Source: Escherichia coli (GTDB taxonomy: Bacteria; Pseudomonadota; Gammaproteobacteria; Enterobacterales; Enterobacteriaceae). From it: DNA of 64,000 bases. The position numbers were made by a program, and so were the translations under genes. The stretch lies in NCBI RefSeq assembly GCF_044324875.1, contig NZ_CP172185.1; one strand, given 5' to 3'. The notes beneath the pieces were generated by a model. That model did not search any database and was not told the DNA's origin. It saw only the letters and a program-made list of their open reading frames with translations. Position 1 is the first letter of the stretch, and each line of letters starts with the position of its first letter. Positions 1 through 9,964 of this stretch are shown one piece after another.

Positions 1-1483
1 TAATCCACCTTTCGGCGTGGACTGGAAAAAGATAGAAACCGACATCAACAACGAGCACAAACTCAAAGGTGCTGATGGTCGCTTTGGCCCCGGCCTGCCC
101 CGCGTCTCTGACGGTTCGTTGCTGTTTCTGCTGCACCTGATCAGCAAAATGCGCGATGCCAAAAGCGGTGGCGGGCGGATCGGCATCATTCTTAATGGTT
201 CCCCATTATTTACCGGCGGCGCGGGCAGCGGTGAAAGCGAGATCCGCCGCTACATTCTGGAAGCGGATTTGCTGGAAGGCATTATCGCCCTGCCCACCGA
301 CATGTTTTACAACACCGGTATCGCTACCTATGTTTGGGTGCTGTCCAACAAAAAAGCGCCAGAACGCAAAGGCAAAGTCCAGCTTATCGACGGCAGCAAC
401 CTGTGCGGCAAGATGCGTAAATCGCTGGGGTCAAAACGCAATATTCTCGGAGACGAGGATATTGGTTTAATCACCCGCACGTTTGGCGATTTCGAACCCG
501 TTGCCACCACTACGCTTGCGGCGTTAGGCCTGGAGAAAGCACCCGAACAAAAATCCAGCCGGGGACGCCAGCCCGCAACAACCAAAACCGAGGCGGCAAA
601 AACTTTTGCCAGCAAAGTCTTTCACAGCACCGAGTTTGGCTATCGTCGCATCACCGTTGAGCGCCCGTTACGCCTGTCGGCTCAGATAAGTGATGACGCC
701 ATTGCCACATTACGTTTTGCGCCGAAGCCGTTTAACGCTCCGATGGCGCAACTGTATGACGCCTTTGCTTTCCAGTGGCAGGACGGTCATTACGGCGACT
801 TAACAGCGGTAGAAAGTGAAGCCCGCGCCATTCTTAAAGCCGATTTTAGCGAGCTGAAAGAGAAGCAAATTAAAGATCTGCTCGACAGCAAATTATGGCT
901 GGCCCAGCGCGGGTTAATGGAAAAAGCGCGGCGTATTCAGGCGGCGATGGGTATGCAGGCGGGCGGCAAAGACACCGTTAGCAATGACTTTAATCAGTTC
1001 CAGTTGACGCTGAAAGAGGCGTTCAAAACCGCAGGCGTGAAGCTGGATGCGAAAGAGAACAAGCAGTTTATCGATGCTATCACCCGCAAAAACCCGGACG
1101 CCGAGCCGGTAGTCAGCAAGGTACTGAAAGAAGCGGCCCAACCGTTGTACGGCGCGTTTGAGTACCACGGAAAGGTTGTGGAGTTTGAGCCGGATGGCGA
1201 CCTGCGTGATAACGAGAATGTGCCGTTAAATCCGGCGGTATCTACCAGCGAGTTGATCGAGGGTTACTTCAAAGCAGAAGTATTGCCGCACGTCGCGGAT
1301 GCGTGGATTAACGCCGATAAGCGCGATGCGAAAGATGGGGATATCGGGATTGTGGGGTATGAAATTCCGTTTAATCGCCATTTTTATGTTTATCAACCGC
1401 CAAGGCCGCTGGAGGAGATTGATGCGGATCTGGATGCAGTAAGCGCTGAAATTATGAAACTGTTGCAGGAGGTACATTCCTGA
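1..1483 (+). CDS. hsdM: Type I restriction-modification N6-adenine DNA methyltransferase subunit (HsdM), 5' end truncated by window edge
   Basis: Reading frame is open from position 2; first codons encode NPPFG (gamma-class N6A-MTase motif IV). About 488 aa follow the motif, giving a long C-terminal extension compared with EcoKI-type HsdM. Stop TGA overlaps the ATG of the next gene by 1 nt. Confidence 0.85.
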
Positions 1484-2772
1484 TGGCAGGGTTAAATAAA
1501 TATCAGGCGTATCCGGAGTATAGGGATTCTGGGGTGGAGTGGATCGATGCAATCCCTTTTCATTGGGAAGTGCTACCAACATTTTCTCTATGTGAGGCAT
1601 CGACGAAGAAAAATATCGATGGAGCAGAAAACAATGTGCTCTCATTGAGTTATGGAAAAATTATTCCCAGAGATATAGAAACAAACTTCGGGCTTTTACC
1701 AGAGTCATTTAATACTTATCAAATCGTTGAAAATGGCGATATTATTTTAAGATTAACTGATCTACAAAATGATAAAAACAGTTTACGCGTAGGATTAGTC
1801 AAACAAAAAGGGATTATTACATCTGCATATTTAAAACTCAATTCACAAGGAAGTATGCTATCCGAATATTTATATCGCCTACTTCATTCATATGATACGA
1901 CTAAAGTTTTTTATGGCATGGGAGGAGGGCTGAGACAATCAATGAAATTTGAGGATTTCAGAAGATTGCCCTTACTGCTTCCATCGAAAAACGAACAGGG
2001 AAAAATAATTGATTTCCTCGACCACGAAACAGCAAAAATCGATAACCTGATCGAAAAACAACAACAACTTATTGAACTACTGAAAGAAAAACGTCAGGCA
2101 GTGATTAGCCATGCGGTGACCAAAGGGCTAAATCCTGATGTGCCGATGAAAGATTCTGGGGTTGAGTGGTTGGGTGAAGTTCCGAAACACTGGCACATAT
2201 GCAAGTTAAAATGGTTTGCTAATTTGAAAAGTGGTGATTTTATAACCAGCAATTCAATAGAACCAGAAGGAAACTATCCTGTTTATGGTGGAAATGGATT
2301 AAGAGGATATTATTCTCATTTTACACACAATGGTGAATATGTTCTTATTGGTAGACAAGGTGCTCTTTGCGGAAATATAAATTACGCAATTGGAAAATTT
2401 TGGGCTTCAGAACATGCTGTTGTTGTCACCCCAAACGAAAGAGCTGTTACAATATGGTTAGGAGAATTATTAAGAATAATGAACTTAAACCAATATTCAG
2501 TTTCTGCTGCACAACCGGGGCTTGCGGTTGAAAGAATTACTGATTTATATATTCCAATCCCACCATATCAAGAGCAAATAAATATCGGAACTTATATATC
2601 TAAATATATTTCTCTAGATAAAAAATTGATTGAGCATAGTACAGATAATATTGAACTCCTAAAAGAACGCCGCACCGCCCTTATCTCCGCCGCCGTCACC
2701 GGCAAAATCGACCTACGCAACTGGACCGCGCCCATCCCCGAAGCGGAAACACCCACGGAGGTCAGCGCATGA
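1483..2772 (+). CDS. hsdS: Type I R-M specificity subunit (HsdS), two target-recognition domains
   Basis: 429 aa; conserved central and C-terminal HsdS helices (KIDNLIEKQQQLIELLKEKRQAVISHAVTKG; RRTALISAAVTGKID); TRD motifs PVYGGNG...GALCGN; TRD-coding parts are AT-rich relative to the conserved parts; start overlaps hsdM stop, stop overlaps hsdR start (ATGA). Confidence 0.85.
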   Translation: MAGLNKYQAYPEYRDSGVEWIDAIPFHWEVLPTFSLCEASTKKNIDGAENNVLSLSYGKIIPRDIETNFGLLPESFNTYQIVENGDIILRLTDLQNDKNSLRVGLVKQKGIITSAYLKLNSQGSMLSEYLYRLLHSYDTTKVFYGMGGGLRQSMKFEDFRRLPLLLPSKNEQGKIIDFLDHETAKIDNLIEKQQQLIELLKEKRQAVISHAVTKGLNPDVPMKDSGVEWLGEVPKHWHICKLKWFANLKSGDFITSNSIEPEGNYPVYGGNGLRGYYSHFTHNGEYVLIGRQGALCGNINYAIGKFWASEHAVVVTPNERAVTIWLGELLRIMNLNQYSVSAAQPGLAVERITDLYIPIPPYQEQINIGTYISKYISLDKKLIEHSTDNIELLKERRTALISAAVTGKIDLRNWTAPIPEAETPTEVSA

Positions 2773-5700
2773 GCAACGACATAACAAAAGAGATCAACCT
2801 GCAAAACGACATCATCGCGCAGATGGCAGAAAAAGGCTGGATTGTCGGCAAAGGTGACGGCTACGACCGGGAACGAGCACTATACGCACAGGATACCTTA
2901 AACTTCGTACAAACCACCCAACCGCAAGAGTGGGAAAAATTCGCCCGCGTTTACCCCAACGACACCGAGCGCCATTTCCTCGACGCACTGGTCGCGCAGC
3001 TTAAAAAAGCCGACAGCAACGCCACCGATATTCAGTCGCGCACCAGGGGTACGCTCGGCGTACTTCGCCACGGCCTGAAAATCCGCAATGCCCGTTTTTC
3101 GCTGTGCCAGTTTAAACCGGAACATAATCTCAACCCGGAAACGCTGGCGCGCTATCAGCAGAATATCTGCCGCATTGTGCCGGAACTGATCTACAGCCCT
3201 TATGCCTCAAATAGCGTCTTTGCAGAAACGGGCGTGAAAGCCAAAAAATGGCGCATCGACCTGGTGCTGTTTATCAACGGCCTGCCAATTGCCACGCTGG
3301 AGCTGAAATCCGAATTCAAACAGGCGGTGCAGAACGCCATTGCGCAGTATAAAAAAACCCGCCTGCCGAAAGATCCCGCTACCAATAAGCCCGAACCGCT
3401 GCTGACCTTCAAGCGCGGGGCGCTGGTGCATTTTGCCGTCAGCCAGTATGACGTTTATATGACCACCAAACTCGTGGGTGACAGCACCTTCTTCCTGCCG
3501 TTTAACAAAGGCACCAAAGATGGTGGTGCAGGCAATGAGATCCCCGAAGATACCCACCGCTACGCCACCGATTATCTGTGGAATGAAGTACTGCTGCCGG
3601 ACAACTTATTAAAAATCCTCGCCAGTTTTGTCCATTTGCAGATTGAAGAAAAAGAGGAGTGGAACGGGCTGAAAGCGAAGAAAGAGAGCCTGATTTTCCC
3701 GCGCTATCACCAGTGGGATGTAGTCAACAAACTGCTGGAGGCCGCGACGGTCGAAGGCACCGGCCATAAATACCTGATCCAGCACAGCGCAGGTTCCGGA
3801 AAGTCGAACTCCATTGCCTGGACCGCCCACCAGCTTTCTCGTCTGTACGACGCAAACGGGGAAAAACAGTTTCATTCTGTTATCGTGGTGACGGACCGCA
3901 CAGTGCTGGACGACCAGCTTCAGGACGCCATCTGGCAGTTCGAGCACGCCGACGGCGTGGTCGGGCGCATCAATAATAGAGAGGGCGATGGCTCTAAATC
4001 GGAAAAGCTCGCCAACGCGCTGGAAAACTCGCAACCGATTATTATTGTCACCATCCAGACGTTCCCGTTCGTATTGAAAGCTATCGAAAACAGTGTCAGC
4101 CTGAAGCAGCGTAAATATGCGGTGATTGCCGACGAAGCACACTCCTCGCAGAGCGGTTCTACCGCCCGTCAGCTTAAAGAAGTGCTGATGAGCGAAGAGA
4201 TGGATGATGACGTGGTACTGTCGTCAGAAGATATTCTGGATGCGACCATCGCTGCACGGAAAGGCAGCAGTAACCTGAACTACTACGCCTTTACCGCCAC
4301 GCCAAAATCCAAAACCCTGGAACTCTTTGGTCGCTGTCCGCGTCCCGATGAGCCGGCCTCAAAAACCAATAAACCTGAGGCCTTCCACGTCTACTCCATG
4401 CGCCAGGCAATCGAAGAAGGCTTTATCCTCGACGTGCTGAAAAACTACACCAACTACAAAGTGGCGTATCAGTTGCTGCAAAAGCTGGAAGACAAGGACC
4501 GCGAAGTCGACAGCAAAAAGGCAAAGATAAAGCTCAACCAATGGGTGACACTGCACGACCACAACATCTCGCAGAAGGTGAAGGTGATTGTGGAGCACTT
4601 CCGCAAACATGTGATGCACCTGCTTGGCGGCCAGGCTAAAGCGATGGTGGTCACCAGTTCACGCAAAGCCGCTGTGCGCTACAAGCTGGCGTTTGATAAA
4701 TACATTAGCGAGAACAATTACCAGAAAATCAGCGCGATGGTGGCATTTTCCGGGGAAGTTGAATTCCAGGAAGGCGACCATAACAGCCTGGCATTGTTAA
4801 AGCAGAAATTTACTGAAATAAACATGAACCCCGGCCTGAAAGGGCGGGATATGCGCAAAGCCTTCGACAGCGATGATTATCAGGTGATGTTGGTCGCCAA
4901 TAAATTCCAGACCGGTTTTGACCAGCCAAAGCTGTGCGCGATGTACGTGGATAAACCCCTCGGTGGCGTCGAGTGCGTGCAGACACTCTCCCGCCTGAAC
5001 CGCACCTATCCGGGCAAAGCGGAATCGGGCACTTTTGTCCTCGATTTTTATAATGATCCGGACGAGATCCTCGGCGCATTCCAGCCCTATTTCCAGACGG
5101 CGGAACTGACCGATGTCAGCGATCCGCAGCAGGTATTCGATCTGTTTGAAAAACTGCGCGCCACGCAGATTTTTCAGTGGCATGAAGTCGAGCAGTTCTG
5201 CGAGGCGTACTTCATCAAAAATAAATCGAATGCGGCGATCAGTAATATCTGTAAACCGGCGGTCGAACGCTGGAAAAAGCGTTATCTGATGGCAATAGAC
5301 GCCTATTTGACCGCCAAAGAGATGTTCGAGCGCACTAAAAAAACGGGCGATACGGTGTTAATCACCAATGCGGAAAACAGTTTTAAAGCCTGTAAGCAGG
5401 AGAAAGATCGTCTGGAGATTTTCAAGAAAGATCTCGGCAGCTTTGTTCGCTTTTATGAGTTTATGTCGCAAATCGTTGAGTACGATGACAAGGATCTGGA
5501 AAAGCTAAGCCTGTTTGCCCGTCATCTGCGTCCGCTGCTGCATGAGCAACGTCTGGAAGAGGATGAAATTGATCTCAGTAATGTGGAGATGAGTCACTAT
5601 CGTTTATCGAAAATCCATGAGCAAGATTTACGCTTACAGGAAGAAACGTCTGACTATACGCTGGATGCAAGTAATGATATTGGTACGGCAAAAGCGAAAG

Positions 5701-6032
5701 ATAAAAAAGAGGAGTTTTTATCGCAGGTGCTTTCTCGGATGAATGAATTATTCATTAGCGACCATTTGACCGACAAAGATATGATCAGCAATGCTTTTGC
5801 GGTGTATAACAAAATAACTGAAAATGAAAATGTTATGACACAAATTAAAAACAATCCGCCAGAACAAGCGATTCTTGGTGATTTCCTCCAGGCAGTTGAT
5901 AATGCTGTAATGGACAGTAATGACGCTCGGCAAGAATTTATGTTGCAATATTTATCCGATCCAGTTCGGGCAAAGGGCTTTGCTTATCTGATGTTTGATA
6001 TGCTCACGGGGAAAATTGCTTTGCCAACATAA
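2769..6032 (+). CDS. hsdR: Type I R-M restriction subunit (HsdR), nuclease + SF2 helicase
   Basis: 1087 aa; N-terminal PD-(D/E)xK-like nuclease region (ATLELKSE), Walker A SAGSGKSN, DEAH box VIADEAHSSQ; ATGA overlap with hsdS. Confidence 0.9.
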   Translation: MSNDITKEINLQNDIIAQMAEKGWIVGKGDGYDRERALYAQDTLNFVQTTQPQEWEKFARVYPNDTERHFLDALVAQLKKADSNATDIQSRTRGTLGVLRHGLKIRNARFSLCQFKPEHNLNPETLARYQQNICRIVPELIYSPYASNSVFAETGVKAKKWRIDLVLFINGLPIATLELKSEFKQAVQNAIAQYKKTRLPKDPATNKPEPLLTFKRGALVHFAVSQYDVYMTTKLVGDSTFFLPFNKGTKDGGAGNEIPEDTHRYATDYLWNEVLLPDNLLKILASFVHLQIEEKEEWNGLKAKKESLIFPRYHQWDVVNKLLEAATVEGTGHKYLIQHSAGSGKSNSIAWTAHQLSRLYDANGEKQFHSVIVVTDRTVLDDQLQDAIWQFEHADGVVGRINNREGDGSKSEKLANALENSQPIIIVTIQTFPFVLKAIENSVSLKQRKYAVIADEAHSSQSGSTARQLKEVLMSEEMDDDVVLSSEDILDATIAARKGSSNLNYYAFTATPKSKTLELFGRCPRPDEPASKTNKPEAFHVYSMRQAIEEGFILDVLKNYTNYKVAYQLLQKLEDKDREVDSKKAKIKLNQWVTLHDHNISQKVKVIVEHFRKHVMHLLGGQAKAMVVTSSRKAAVRYKLAFDKYISENNYQKISAMVAFSGEVEFQEGDHNSLALLKQKFTEINMNPGLKGRDMRKAFDSDDYQVMLVANKFQTGFDQPKLCAMYVDKPLGGVECVQTLSRLNRTYPGKAESGTFVLDFYNDPDEILGAFQPYFQTAELTDVSDPQQVFDLFEKLRATQIFQWHEVEQFCEAYFIKNKSNAAISNICKPAVERWKKRYLMAIDAYLTAKEMFERTKKTGDTVLITNAENSFKACKQEKDRLEIFKKDLGSFVRFYEFMSQIVEYDDKDLEKLSLFARHLRPLLHEQRLEEDEIDLSNVEMSHYRLSKIHEQDLRLQEETSDYTLDASNDIGTAKAKDKKEEFLSQVLSRMNELFISDHLTDKDMISNAFAVYNKITENENVMTQIKNNPPEQAILGDFLQAVDNAVMDSNDARQEFMLQYLSDPVRAKGFAYLMFDMLTGKIALPT

Positions 6033-6044
6033 AACACGTTGATA

Positions 6045-6070
6045 GCCGGGGTCGCACTTTCTACCCCGGC
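6045..6070 (+). terminator. GC-rich hairpin downstream of hsdR (gccggggt-N10-accccggc)
   Basis: 8-bp perfect inverted repeat 13 nt after the hsdR stop; no strong T-run, so intrinsic-terminator function is uncertain. Confidence 0.35.
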
Positions 6071-6096
6071 CATATTGTTTACAATAAGGAATAGCT

Positions 6097-6810
6097 ATGC
6101 TGAAGATGATTAAAGATTTTAAATTCAAAAAATACATTAAAAAATTACGTGAAGAAGGTTTGTTTTTTTATGTTTCTTTCGGTTTTATATTTACATTGTT
6201 AATGGAAGTTGATAATCAATTACCATACTATCTTCAACAAGACTTCTTCTTTTATACACTTATAGGATTTATGCCAATCAATATATTCTTTGTTTTGATT
6301 TGCACAAATGTATTTTTCAATGCCGCCCACACACTTATTTCACCTTATAAAGGTCAAAGAGTTGGTGAGAAATTTCTCTCTGAACTTGATAAAAGAACGC
6401 AACAAATTGGCTTTATTATTTCATTTATATGTTTTGGCATGACATTGTTTTGTGCTCTGGCGTGGTTGCTGTTTTTTGAGATGAATAATGAAAGTTACTA
6501 CGCAAAATATACATTAGATTTTTTGGCTGTTTTTATCATTATGATTATGTTTTCTTCAGCAGTTAATCCAGTCATGAGAAGAATATTCCAAAAAATGAAG
6601 GGATCGGACTCACATGGAAATTCAAAAATAATTCTTATAATTATAATCATTGTGTTATTGCTATTATTGCCAATTGCGTACATTATCAATAAAAATAAAA
6701 CAATTGAAATCAATATTAAGAAAGAAACTTATCAGCAAATAAAAGAAAAAACAAAGATGAAACCAGAAGATTATATCAAAAAATTGATTGCTGATATTAA
6801 ATTCAACTAA
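6097..6810 (+). CDS. Hypothetical polytopic membrane protein, AT-rich (likely horizontally acquired)
   Basis: 237 aa ORF with AAGGA RBS 7-11 nt upstream of ATG; several long hydrophobic segments; lysine-rich termini; much lower GC than flanking genes. Confidence 0.55.
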   Translation: MLKMIKDFKFKKYIKKLREEGLFFYVSFGFIFTLLMEVDNQLPYYLQQDFFFYTLIGFMPINIFFVLICTNVFFNAAHTLISPYKGQRVGEKFLSELDKRTQQIGFIISFICFGMTLFCALAWLLFFEMNNESYYAKYTLDFLAVFIIMIMFSSAVNPVMRRIFQKMKGSDSHGNSKIILIIIIIVLLLLLPIAYIINKNKTIEINIKKETYQQIKEKTKMKPEDYIKKLIADIKFN

Positions 6811-6814
6811 TATC

Positions 6815-6848
6815 TATATGTACCCTGGTTTCTTCCTGGGTACATATA
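6815..6848. terminator. Hairpin between convergent genes (tatatgtaccc-N12-gggtacatata)
   Basis: 11-bp inverted repeat lying between the 3' ends of the membrane-protein ORF (+) and yjiS (-); possible bidirectional terminator. Confidence 0.35.
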
Positions 6849-6886
6849 AAAAGTTAATATCCTGATTTATTCTCAACATCCCCCCA

Positions 6887-7051
6887 TCACTCCACATCCT
6901 CCCTGCGTAACCCAATATCCCTCAACCGCTCATCACTCATCTGCTGTAACACCCGCCGGGCCTGCATTTGCCGCCGCCAACGCCTCACTGCCTGCCAGAG
7001 TTGCACAAGTCCAATAAACGGTGCTTTAGCTTTGTTTTCATGAAATTCCAT
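6887..7051 (-). CDS. yjiS: DUF1127 small protein (54 aa), not in supplied ORF track (<60 aa)
   Basis: Minus-strand translation MEFHENKAKAPFIGLVQLWQAVRRWRRQMQARRVLQQMSDERLRDIGLRREDVE; contains the DUF1127 hallmark LxxMSDxxLxDIGLxRxD; divergent from yjiR as in K-12. Confidence 0.7.
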   Translation of the reverse strand: MEFHENKAKAPFIGLVQLWQAVRRWRRQMQARRVLQQMSDERLRDIGLRREDVE

Positions 7052-7227
7052 CGACTGCCTCCTCATCTTTCAGAGGCTTCATCATCCGTCTTCTGGCAGT
7101 TCACAATACAGATGCAAATATTAGTTTTATTTAACATACAGACAGGTTAAAACAGCATCTGCATCCGGTTTTTTAGCCTCATCTGTACCGGTTTTTCTCT
7201 CTGTATGGTCCACATAAGGAATACAGC

Positions 7228-8640
7228 ATGACGCGTTATCAACATCTGGCGACTCTGCTTGCCGAGCGGATTGAGCAGGGGCTGTATCGTCACGGGGAGA
7301 AATTGCCGTCGGTGCGCAGCTTAAGTCAGGAGCACGGCGTCAGCATCAGCACCGTGCAGCAGGCGTATCAGACGCTGGAGACGATGAAGCTCATCACCCC
7401 ACAGCCGCGTTCGGGTTATTTTGTCGCACAACGTAAAGCCCAGCCGCCAGTGCCGCCGATGACGCGTCCGGTGCAGCGCCCGGTGGAAATTACCCAGTGG
7501 GATCAGGTGCTGGATATGCTGGAGGCGCATAGCGACAGTTCCATTGTTCCGTTAAGTAAAAGCACGCCGGATGTCGAAACGCCCAGCCTGAAACCGCTGT
7601 GGCGGGAGCTAAGCCGGGTGGTGCAGCATAATCTGCAAACCGTTCTCGGTTATGACTTGTTAGCCGGTCAGCGAGTGTTGCGAGAGCAGATTGCCCGCCT
7701 GATGCTCGACAGCGGCTCGGTGGTCACTGCCGATGACATCATCATCACCAGCGGCTGCCATAACTCGATGTCGCTGGCGTTAATGGCGGTGTGTAAACCG
7801 GGCGATATTGTCGCGGTCGAATCCCCCTGTTATTACGGTTCGATGCAGATGCTGCGTGGCATGGGCGTGAAAGTGATTGAAATCCCAACCGATCCAGAAA
7901 CAGGCATCAGCGTTGAAGCGCTGGAACTGGCGCTGGAACAGTGGCCGATTAAAGGCATCATTCTGGTGCCAAACTGTAATAATCCGCTGGGATTTATTAT
8001 GCCGGACGCGCGCAAACGGGCCGTTCTCTCTCTCGCTCAGCGTCATGATATTGTGATTTTTGAAGATGATGTCTACGGCGAACTGGCAACGGAGTATCCG
8101 CGCCCGCGGACCATTCATTCCTGGGATATCGACGGGCGAGTGCTGTTGTGCAGCTCATTCAGTAAAAGTATTGCACCTGGCCTGCGCGTGGGTTGGGTCG
8201 CACCGGGGCGTTATCACGATAAACTGATGCATATGAAATACGCCATCAGCAGCTTTAATGTACCGTCCACGCAAATGGCGGCGGCAACGTTTGTGCTGGA
8301 AGGTCACTATCATCGCCATATCCGGCGGATGCGGCAGATCTATCAGCGCAATTTGGCGCTTTATACCTGCTGGATACGGGAATATTTTCCCTGCGAAATC
8401 TGCATTACGCGCCCGAAAGGCGGATTTTTACTGTGGATCGAATTGCCTGAACAGGTCGATATGGTCTGCGTCGCACGGCAGCTATACCGCATGAAAATCC
8501 AGGTGGCGGCAGGCTCGATTTTCTCAGCTTCCGGCAAATACCGTAATTGTCTGCGCATCAACTGCGCTTTGCCGCTCAGCGAAACCTATCGCGAAGCACT
8601 GAAGCAAATTGGCGAAGCCGTGTATCGGGCAATGGAATGA
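7228..8640 (+). CDS. yjiR: MocR-family transcriptional regulator (GntR-type HTH fused to aminotransferase-like domain)
   Basis: 470 aa; N-terminal winged-HTH (LPSVRSLSQEHGVSISTVQQAY), C-terminal PLP-fold aminotransferase-like domain including SFSKSIAPGLRVGW. Confidence 0.9.
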   Translation: MTRYQHLATLLAERIEQGLYRHGEKLPSVRSLSQEHGVSISTVQQAYQTLETMKLITPQPRSGYFVAQRKAQPPVPPMTRPVQRPVEITQWDQVLDMLEAHSDSSIVPLSKSTPDVETPSLKPLWRELSRVVQHNLQTVLGYDLLAGQRVLREQIARLMLDSGSVVTADDIIITSGCHNSMSLALMAVCKPGDIVAVESPCYYGSMQMLRGMGVKVIEIPTDPETGISVEALELALEQWPIKGIILVPNCNNPLGFIMPDARKRAVLSLAQRHDIVIFEDDVYGELATEYPRPRTIHSWDIDGRVLLCSSFSKSIAPGLRVGWVAPGRYHDKLMHMKYAISSFNVPSTQMAAATFVLEGHYHRHIRRMRQIYQRNLALYTCWIREYFPCEICITRPKGGFLLWIELPEQVDMVCVARQLYRMKIQVAAGSIFSASGKYRNCLRINCALPLSETYREALKQIGEAVYRAME

Positions 8641-8757
8641 ATTCGAAATAGTGGCGAGCCCCCTGATTTCCTCTCACGAATAGCGTGTGACTTGTTTTAA
8701 CTTTGCAGGGTCATCTCCACGTTCCAGCATGGCTTAGGTAAAATGCGCTTCGTTCAT

Positions 8758-8882: not shown

Positions 8883-9964
8883 TTAGTACTCGATCCATGG
8901 ATCGCGCTTGCTTTCAGGCAAGGGCTGATCTAATGCCTGCATTTGCTCTGCCGAAAGTCCGGTATATCGTTGTATCCATTCAGGATCCGCCCCATTCTGC
9001 AACAACAATCGGAGGAGGCTCCGTTCCCCTTCTACTTTCCCTTCTTTCCTCCCCCTCTCCCTTCCCAACAGCCATCCATCATTATGAATTCGCTCTGCAA
9101 TCGTCATTATTCGCTCCCTTTGTTGTGGCATTCGACTGGTTAGTTCGCTGATAAACTCTTTAAAACGCGCTTCATCGCCAGTCAGTAAAATGTAATTTAA
9201 CAGCGCAGTTATCTGGCTGTCATTAGTACACTCTGTAACCAGTAATACTACCAGTTGGTCGATAAGCCCCATCAGATCGCGCTGGCGAATATGCTTTTGG
9301 ATCAACTCCAACAGGGCGACTCTGCGGTGCTGCACAATCTCGTCGTCTGGCACGACAGTGATATCCACCAGCGGGAACGCGGCGGTATATACTCGTCATA
9401 CTTCAAGTTGCATGTGCTGCGACTGCGTTCATTCACCCCAGTCACTTACTTTTGTAAGCTCCTGGGGATTCACTCACTTGTCGCCTTCCTGCAACTTGAA
9501 TTATTTAGAGTATAAAGCTTCCGTGCGGTGGTCGGGTCAGCAAATTCGTCCAGCCAGCACAGGGACCAGGGGTAAGGACTACGGCTACCGTGATAAAACA
9601 GCATCGGGATGACCAGCGGTAGCGGCCGGCGTTTATCATGCTCGATATGGCGCTGCATCACCGCCATGGAATATCGCATCAGGCGAAAGGCCATATGGAT
9701 ATCCTCGCGGCTCTGATGTTCAATCACTACGTAAATATAACCATCACCTTCACGGGTCTTTACCGACCACAGAATATCAGAGTGTAGCGCCCGCAATTTT
9801 TCATCGACAAAGCTGGCGGATTCCAGTTTTAAGCTGTCGAGATCGCACAATTCACGTAAATCTATTGGTAAGTGGATCTCCATAAAATCCCGCGCGGTGT
9901 CAGGGTGGGTGAGAAAGGATTTAAATAATGCGTCATGCGGCGTACTGGTCGTGAAGTTTGTCAT
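8883..9964 (-). pseudogene. rpnD: Rpn-family (YhgA-like, PD-(D/E)xK) recombination-promoting nuclease gene split into two frames (yjiP + yjiQ fragments)
   Basis: N-terminal fragment 9470..9964 ([18 protein letters not shown]...) and C-terminal fragment 8883..9368 are in different frames separated by ~100 bp; same split arrangement as the K-12 yjiP/yjiQ pseudogene. Confidence 0.65.

Follow-up and report, generated by a model that had tools for sequence, protein, structure and literature searches.

yjiS, a DUF1127 small-protein gene at the edge of a variable type I restriction-modification cassette in Escherichia coli

What is encoded between the type I restriction-modification (R-M) cassette and the regulator gene yjiR in a 64,000-nt stretch of Escherichia coli DNA (assembly GCF_044324875.1, contig NZ_CP172185.1; hereafter the window), and how does it relate to the border between shared and strain-specific sequence? 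An initial annotation, made from the sequence alone, had proposed that a minus-strand ORF under the 60-aa cut-off of the ORF list encodes a DUF1127 protein. Translation of positions 6887-7051 on this strand gives MEFHENKAKAPFIGLVQLWQAVRRWRRQMQARRVLQQMSDERLRDIGLRREDVE followed by a stop (54 codons plus TGA), and QQMSDERLRDIGLRREDVE, the signature quoted at that time, is found inside this translation. The gene is absent from the list only because it falls below the cut-off, as mechanical ORF calling starts at an upstream ATG (7066) and yields 59 aa. This 59-aa extension was rejected, because its ATG overlaps the Shine-Dalgarno sequence and is missing in Citrobacter. The GGAGG core of the Shine-Dalgarno sequence is kept in Escherichia, Citrobacter, and Klebsiella, while the in-frame upstream ATG (7064-7066) is not. 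Since the upstream ATG is missing in Citrobacter, and the ATG at 7051 and the Shine-Dalgarno sequence are conserved, the 54-aa protein is the correct product. The features of the locus are collected in Table 1.

Table 1. Features of the yjiS locus in the window
Feature	Position	Strand	Basis or remark
hsdM, hsdS, hsdR (type I R-M)	1..6032	+	Pfam N6_Mtase, Methylase_S, HSDR_N/ResIII/T1R_D3; PADLOC REase_I; RefSeq AF39
AT-rich orphan membrane-protein gene, first of the variable cassette	6097..6810	+	GC content, TM-like segments
Cassette-borne hairpin, 14-bp arms	6815..6848		Inverted repeat, 93% complementary; RNA fold z=-3.6
Junction: short G-run (TGGGGGGA, yjiS strand) right after the stop	6879..6886		Flank comparison, megablast start
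yjiS	6887..7051	-	Translation, PF06568, RefSeq orthologue annotation, dN/dS 0.06-0.25
Shine-Dalgarno AGGAGG (plus-strand CCTCCT)	7058..7063	-	6 nt before the yjiS ATG at 7051
Candidate box 1, TCTGTA	7107..7112	-	Invariant block CAATACAGA in 25 loci; same offset in Klebsiella
Candidate box 2, TCTGTA	7137..7142	-	Conserved; inside the spacer of the proposed yjiS promoter
Candidate box 3, TCTGTA	7182..7187	+	Within conserved block TCTGTAC.GGTTT
Candidate box 4, TCTGTA	7200..7205	+	Within conserved block ATCTGTATGG
yjiR, divergent MocR-type regulator, 470 aa	7228..8640	+	Pfam GntR + Aminotran_1_2; RefSeq yjiR

The Pfam profile DUF1127 (PF06568, now YjiS-like) matches the product with E=2.8e-12 and 46.6 bits against a gathering score of 23.3. 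The match spans profile positions 1-37 of 37 and YjiS residues 18-54, and the DIGL motif corresponds to D45-I46-G47-L48. Across thousands of complete E. coli genomes, RefSeq names the same 165-nt gene 'yjiS: DUF1127 domain-containing protein'; the window protein is identical at 54/54 positions to the yjiS product WP_000394263.1 of strain 24AR0376. Like the window gene, K-12 yjiS (b4341) encodes 54 aa, faces a divergent yjiR across a 176-nt spacer with the same boxes, and borders the Immigration Control Region (ICR). The two proteins share 51/54 residues (94.4%), the window allele carrying the conservative exchanges K7R, A31T, and R44K, whereas their DNA is only 92.7% identical and K-12 has yjiT and mcrBC downstream in place of the type I cassette and the orphan membrane ORF. 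The identity to K-12, the divergent yjiR, the 176-177-nt spacer, and the RefSeq name together assign the ORF to the yjiS orthologue group. A search of 5.8 billion protein sequences retrieved 151 YjiS relatives; those that are named come from Escherichia, Citrobacter, and Klebsiella, and, among the matches listed, all relatives with a precomputed Pfam domain carry PF06568. A sequence search of the PDB found no YjiS relative with a solved structure, and NCBIfam and PADLOC contained no model matching YjiS. The frame at 6887-7051 is the already known E. coli gene yjiS, which encodes a DUF1127 small protein. The homology to DUF1127 on which the initial annotation had staked its proposal is present over the full profile and in the alignment with K-12 YjiS.

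YjiS is the sole DUF1127 protein of E. coli and was reported to bind PhoR in two-hybrid and far-western assays as well as directly with purified proteins (PMC12501420). In the same study, an E. coli yjiS mutant showed increased pstS expression and faster phosphate uptake, and E. coli yjiS complemented an Agrobacterium triple DUF1127 mutant (PMC12501420). The PhoR link stems from this one 2025 paper, in which the two-hybrid assay was positive in only one fusion orientation (PMC12501420). The orthologue from Salmonella Typhimurium is associated with the inner membrane, can be extracted with salt, and retrieves SsrA and PspA in pull-downs, while single Arg-to-Ala or DIGL substitutions left its infection phenotype unchanged (PMC11707872). 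By its published description, this orthologue likewise has 54 aa, the DUF1127 domain, a DIGL motif, and an amphipathic helix at the N-terminus; it associates with the membrane and contacts a sensor kinase (PMC11707872). SsrA/B as the characterised partner and the escape from macrophages are features of Salmonella only; E. coli is devoid of SsrA/B. The AF2 model of YjiS consists of one long helix (residues 10-45) at moderate confidence (pLDDT 71.8), and the helical hydrophobic moment is highest at residues 8-31; both are compatible with an amphipathic helix that could dock to a membrane or a protein. Thus, the published orthologue data together with the helix model suggest that YjiS is most likely a small peripheral membrane protein that damps the output of a sensor kinase, PhoR in E. 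coli. Following the orthologue experiments, the protein would sit peripherally at the inner membrane and bind sensor kinases, and through its binding to PhoR it would serve E. coli as a brake on the Pho regulon. We consider it highly probable, taking the explanation as a whole, that the window carries yjiS at its usual locus on the ICR edge, that its product is a PhoR-binding brake on the Pho regulon, and that the boxes upstream of it are likely under YjiR control.

The main rival to this sensor-kinase role is that YjiS mainly binds RNA, as does Rhodobacter CcaF1, and that its arginine-rich helix affects sRNA maturation and mRNA stability instead of sensor kinases. CcaF1 and the Agrobacterium proteins SDP1-3, as alphaproteobacterial small DUF1127 proteins, have the Pfam domain and PhoR binding in common with YjiS, and E. 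coli yjiS complements the Agrobacterium triple mutant. They differ from it in that their similarity is about 24-34%, that many of them are shorter than 50 aa with nothing outside the domain, that multiple paralogues occur per genome, and that CcaF1 binds RNA. YjiS itself is arginine-rich and net positive, with 10 Arg among its 54 residues and 12 K+R vs 8 D+E. CcaF1 was reported to bind RNA, and the Agrobacterium mutant that yjiS complements is complemented by the CcaF1 gene as well (PMC8034643, PMC12501420). Against this, the pull-downs with Salmonella YjiS were without RNA association and yielded inner-membrane proteins as partners (PMC11707872), and the direct binding of purified YjiS and PhoR likewise points to a protein partner. 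A predominantly RNA-binding YjiS is unlikely in our estimation, and the damping of a sensor kinase remains the preferred role.

The position of yjiS raises a second issue, namely where the sequence common to the strains ends. As described in later articles that credit Sibley & Raleigh 2004, yjiS is the published edge of the ICR (PMC3874165, PMC2481252, PMC3874153), while a 2025 EcoSal review gives the variable interval as yjiA-yjiN, with these two genes as anchors, in 93% of 9,040 Enterobacteriaceae genomes (PMC12707154). Megablast of window positions 5800-8700 against 5,426 complete E. coli genomes returned 3,760 genomes with a match, and the match extended to the left of yjiS in only 51 of them. 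In the remaining 3,700+ genomes it begins at query positions 1076-1088, i.e., window positions 6875-6887, and the full stretch was matched at 80% or more in only 51/5,426 genomes. A flank comparison of 14 Escherichia loci revealed that strain-to-strain homology ends 0-10 nt past the yjiS TGA, where the G-run is the last stretch partly common to strains and everything leftward is cassette-specific. The gene that follows yjiS differs accordingly among strains: the orphan membrane ORF with the type I R-M system in the window and in strain AF39, yjiT in K-12, a DUF262/GmrSD gene in O157:H7, a penicillin G acylase gene in SE11, and symE in several others. Common sequence up to yjiS and unrelated segments of five neighbour types beyond it are the pattern of an ICR framework gene. 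In line with the framework of Sibley & Raleigh 2004, as cited in these later articles, a variable R-M cassette adjoins yjiS and alternative segments occur at the same site across strains; in difference to it, the window does not reach the yjiA side and the anchor is now yjiN in the 2025 review. The assertion that yjiS marks the conserved/variable boundary was thereby confirmed, and the distance given for the start of the variable region, within ~80 bp of the stop, is true but loose.

On the cassette side, hsdM is cut by the window start and ends at 1483, followed by hsdS (1483-2772) and hsdR (2769-6032). The window thus begins inside hsdM and contains only the yjiS side of the ICR; in strains SE11, PAR, 8178, and WP8, yjiA is found on the far side of the cassette. 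The orphan gene lies 64 nt downstream of hsdR and encodes 237 aa at a GC content of 0.27-0.32 (about 0.29), compared with about 0.52 in the flanks. Its product contains 4-5 hydrophobic, TM-like 19-mers, matches no family in Pfam, NCBIfam, or PADLOC, and could be an accessory protein, hitherto uncharacterised, that belongs to the type I cassette. Besides, HsdR proteins 85-87% identical to that of the window are encoded a few kb from yjiS in the Citrobacter MAG HRGM_0066 (L022, 8962-12162) and in a further Citrobacter locus (L017, 11218-12162), which suggests that the same type I cassette family may have been exchanged between genera at the yjiS locus.

The gene itself is not present in every strain. 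A full-length yjiS was found in 3,736/5,426 complete E. coli genomes (69%), a 3' remnant in about 420, and no yjiS in about 1,270. The description of yjiS as the last core-like gene before the cassette in the initial annotation therefore needs to be qualified: it is the last gene common to strains, but it is not strictly core, being missing or truncated in about 31% of the genomes. The absence of yjiS-yjiR from this share of genomes fits the yjiN anchor of the 2025 review (PMC12707154), and yjiR has independently been reported as accessory (PMC6550539). In strain PAR, only the C-terminal half of yjiS is left beside an Rpn gene, the remainder having been lost together with yjiR and mdtM. A recurrent deletion that removes yjiR and mdtM was observed with one endpoint in yjiS or yjiR and the other beside a gene for an Rpn-family recombination-promoting nuclease, as exemplified by PAR (L005, 5001-5093), strain 8178 (L006, 5348-5662), and the about 420 genomes with a remnant.

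Where yjiS is present, it is unusually variable. At the DNA level, the window allele shares only 90-95% identity with most E. coli alleles, and within-species dS reaches 0.2-0.45 in yjiS vs 0.07-0.14 in yjiR. The divergence of 4-13% in yjiS falls to 1-3% within about 300 nt and decays into yjiR. This polymorphism agrees with the notion of 'bastions of polymorphism' put forward for the hsd region. Strict co-segregation of yjiS allele and cassette was rejected, as YjiS proteins of 83-96% identity occur with one cassette and identical ones beside another: the window (hsd) and 24AR0376 (symE) share an identical YjiS, while the window and E69 have the same cassette and YjiS proteins that are 83% identical. 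In strain AF39 (L001), which shares the cassette (HsdR 97.6% identical in amino acids), positions 7187-8386 of the yjiR region match the window without any difference along about 1.2 kb, whereas 6887-7186 differ by 4% in yjiS and 2% in the spacer, forming a short mosaic patch centred on yjiS. The mixing of alleles and cassettes together with this patch indicates that exchange junctions are located within or at yjiS. Recombination in the flanks, by which cassettes are exchanged, would explain the position of yjiS at the island edge, and such exchange may also have rendered the gene unusually polymorphic and, in Escherichia, deprived it of a conserved 3' flank.

Could yjiS then be functionally part of the defence island, as an accessory or regulator of the adjoining restriction cassette? 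It abuts the cassette without a spacer, it is lost or truncated in the share of E. coli genomes given above, and the 2025 review puts it inside the variable yjiA-yjiN interval (PMC12707154). Nevertheless, the same allele accompanies different cassettes and divergent alleles accompany the same one, the constant partner of yjiS is yjiR and not the cassette, PADLOC gives no match for yjiS, and what comes after the yjiR-yjiS pair in Klebsiella is a set of MarR and efflux genes, without any R-M system. We regard a defence function as very improbable, and favour a housekeeping-type gene that merely borders the island.

The 3' flank of yjiS differs between genera. In most Citrobacter loci (L015-L026), a conserved intrinsic terminator, GAGGCCGG...CCGGCCTCTTTT, lies 10-60 nt past the yjiS stop, consisting of a GC-rich hairpin and a T-run, and about 90 nt downstream of yjiS are conserved. 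All Escherichia loci are without this Citrobacter-type terminator, and each cassette provides the 3' flank of yjiS. In the window, the hairpin at 6815-6848 is situated between the convergent membrane ORF and yjiS; it is without a U-tract and was not called by the terminator scan, and it is plausible as a shared transcript-end structure. One may speculate that a cassette-specific 3' UTR or terminator, together with the polymorphism of yjiS, makes YjiS dosage and, via PhoR, the set-point of the Pho regulon depend on the cassette. We deem this scenario quite unlikely; if true, it would amount to an unrecognised coupling of defence-island turnover with phosphate signalling.

Upstream, yjiS and yjiR form a divergent pair with a spacer of 176-177 nt in Escherichia, Citrobacter, and Klebsiella. 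YjiR combines a GntR wHTH with an aminotransferase-like domain, and its best NCBIfam matches are MocR-like, all of them below the cut-offs. The 176-nt spacer contains four exact copies of TCTGTA vs 0.09 expected, a number reached by 1/5,000 shuffles. An alignment of 25 loci displays sharp conserved blocks despite saturated neutral divergence, and the four boxes are invariant across Escherichia and Citrobacter and occupy identical offsets in Klebsiella, in the layout <- <- -> ->. A fifth box, TCTGCA at 7158, was not counted as core, as its conservation covers Escherichia and Citrobacter and does not extend to Klebsiella. An adjacent divergent MocR-type gene and TGT-containing boxes conserved across genera, the two features sought for a MocR target, are thus both present. 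COG5457, which appears below as a predicted target, is presumably the DUF1127/YjiS family.

TGT is a typical element of MocR operators, among which a four-box class of the type <- <- -> -> has been catalogued (Suvorova and Rodionov, 2016; PMC5320631). The 2016 supplement includes a 'YjiR - Enterobacteriales' regulog that comprises E. coli b4340 and has COG5457 as its predicted target (PMC5320631), and the window resembles this regulog in its divergent MocR-type gene beside a COG5457 gene and probably in its repeated TGT-containing boxes with their four-box layout. As the supplement already lists YjiR with COG5457, the link between YjiR and yjiS is reproduced here and is not new. From box conservation and gene arrangement we infer that the four candidate boxes would set yjiS transcription, most likely through YjiR, which is predicted to regulate its own gene too. 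We found no experimental report of YjiR binding or of an effect of YjiR on yjiS; the article on Salmonella YjiS makes no mention of yjiR, and deletion of yjiR in EHEC had no gut-colonisation phenotype. Genomic SELEX demonstrated that RNA polymerase binds the yjiS-yjiR spacer, with TTAACC-15-TAAAAG as the proposed yjiS promoter (Shimada et al., PMC3946193). These K-12 elements correspond to window positions 7150-7145 and 7129-7124, where the -10 element reads TAAAAC, not TAAAAG. A consensus scan of 6700-7300 called no sigma-70 promoter and no intrinsic terminator, which leaves the SELEX-derived element as the sole promoter proposed for yjiS. In Klebsiella pneumoniae GCA_044069235.1 (L028, 2453-3823), the yjiR homologue is called as two genes (197 aa, GntR; 251 aa, aminotransferase) and is probably a frameshifted pseudogene, beside which yjiS is intact.

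The coding capacity of yjiS is borne out by its evolution. In 29/29 orthologous loci compared, the window included (12 Escherichia, two metagenomic contigs with E. coli-like alleles, 13 Citrobacter, L029, and L030), the frame is intact over 53-54 codons without frameshift or internal stop, with 54 codons in the Klebsiella locus L029 and 53 in contig L030; strain PAR, with only a 3' remnant, stands outside these 29 loci. Pairwise Nei-Gojobori dN/dS values of 0.06-0.25 reveal purifying selection, dS being saturated in comparisons with Citrobacter. Between the window and K-12, 9 synonymous and 3 non-synonymous changes are counted, despite ~4x more non-synonymous sites. Variation clusters in residues 7-32, while M1-N6, P11, F12, W19, and W25 as well as the C-terminal S39-E41-R42-L43-D45-G47-L48-R49-R50 are invariant, with D45, G47, L48, R49, and R50 unchanged in 19/19 YjiS sequences. 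The intact frame in 29 loci and these dN/dS values imply that yjiS is not a chance ORF. That the frame is a non-functional remnant or a chance frame, the real feature lying on the opposite strand or being a non-coding RNA, is hardly conceivable: in its favour are the shortness of the ORF, the overlap with a mechanical antisense ORF, and the scan without a promoter or terminator call nearby, but most changes affect synonymous positions when read in the minus-strand frame, frame and length are kept across three genera, Rfam gives nothing at the gathering score, and translation and protein have been detected for the Salmonella orthologue. The antisense ORF (60 aa, TTG start, 6968-7150) was rejected, as the substitution pattern tracks the minus-strand frame. 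Rfam gave nothing across the whole window at the gathering score, and between 6700 and 7300 at E≤1 it gave only sub-threshold archaeal snoRNA and SAM-II matches, which were treated as chance.

The gene yjiS, its family, its boundary role, a molecular function, and its likely regulator are all in the literature already. The locus illustrates how a 60-aa ORF cut-off hides a real and experimentally studied small-protein gene, and the junction between core and cassette is now placed at base-pair level (window about 6879-6887), which is useful for delimiting the defence island. The candidate four-box operator kept in three genera, the divergence gradient, and the loss of the terminator in Escherichia are modest leads for work on YjiS/PhoR or on ICR turnover.

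Farther along the window, an insertion of ~120 nt (9390-9509, minus strand), as seen in comparison with five other E. coli strains, splits an Rpn-family (yjiP/yjiQ-type) gene into two minus-strand ORFs (8883-9368 and 9470-9964). The insert is a dispersed repeat with a median of 5 copies in 5,425/5,426 E. coli genomes, and its palindromic core, CACCCCAGTCACTTAC...GTAAGCTCCTGGGGATTCAC, looks like what we take to be an ERIC/IRU element.
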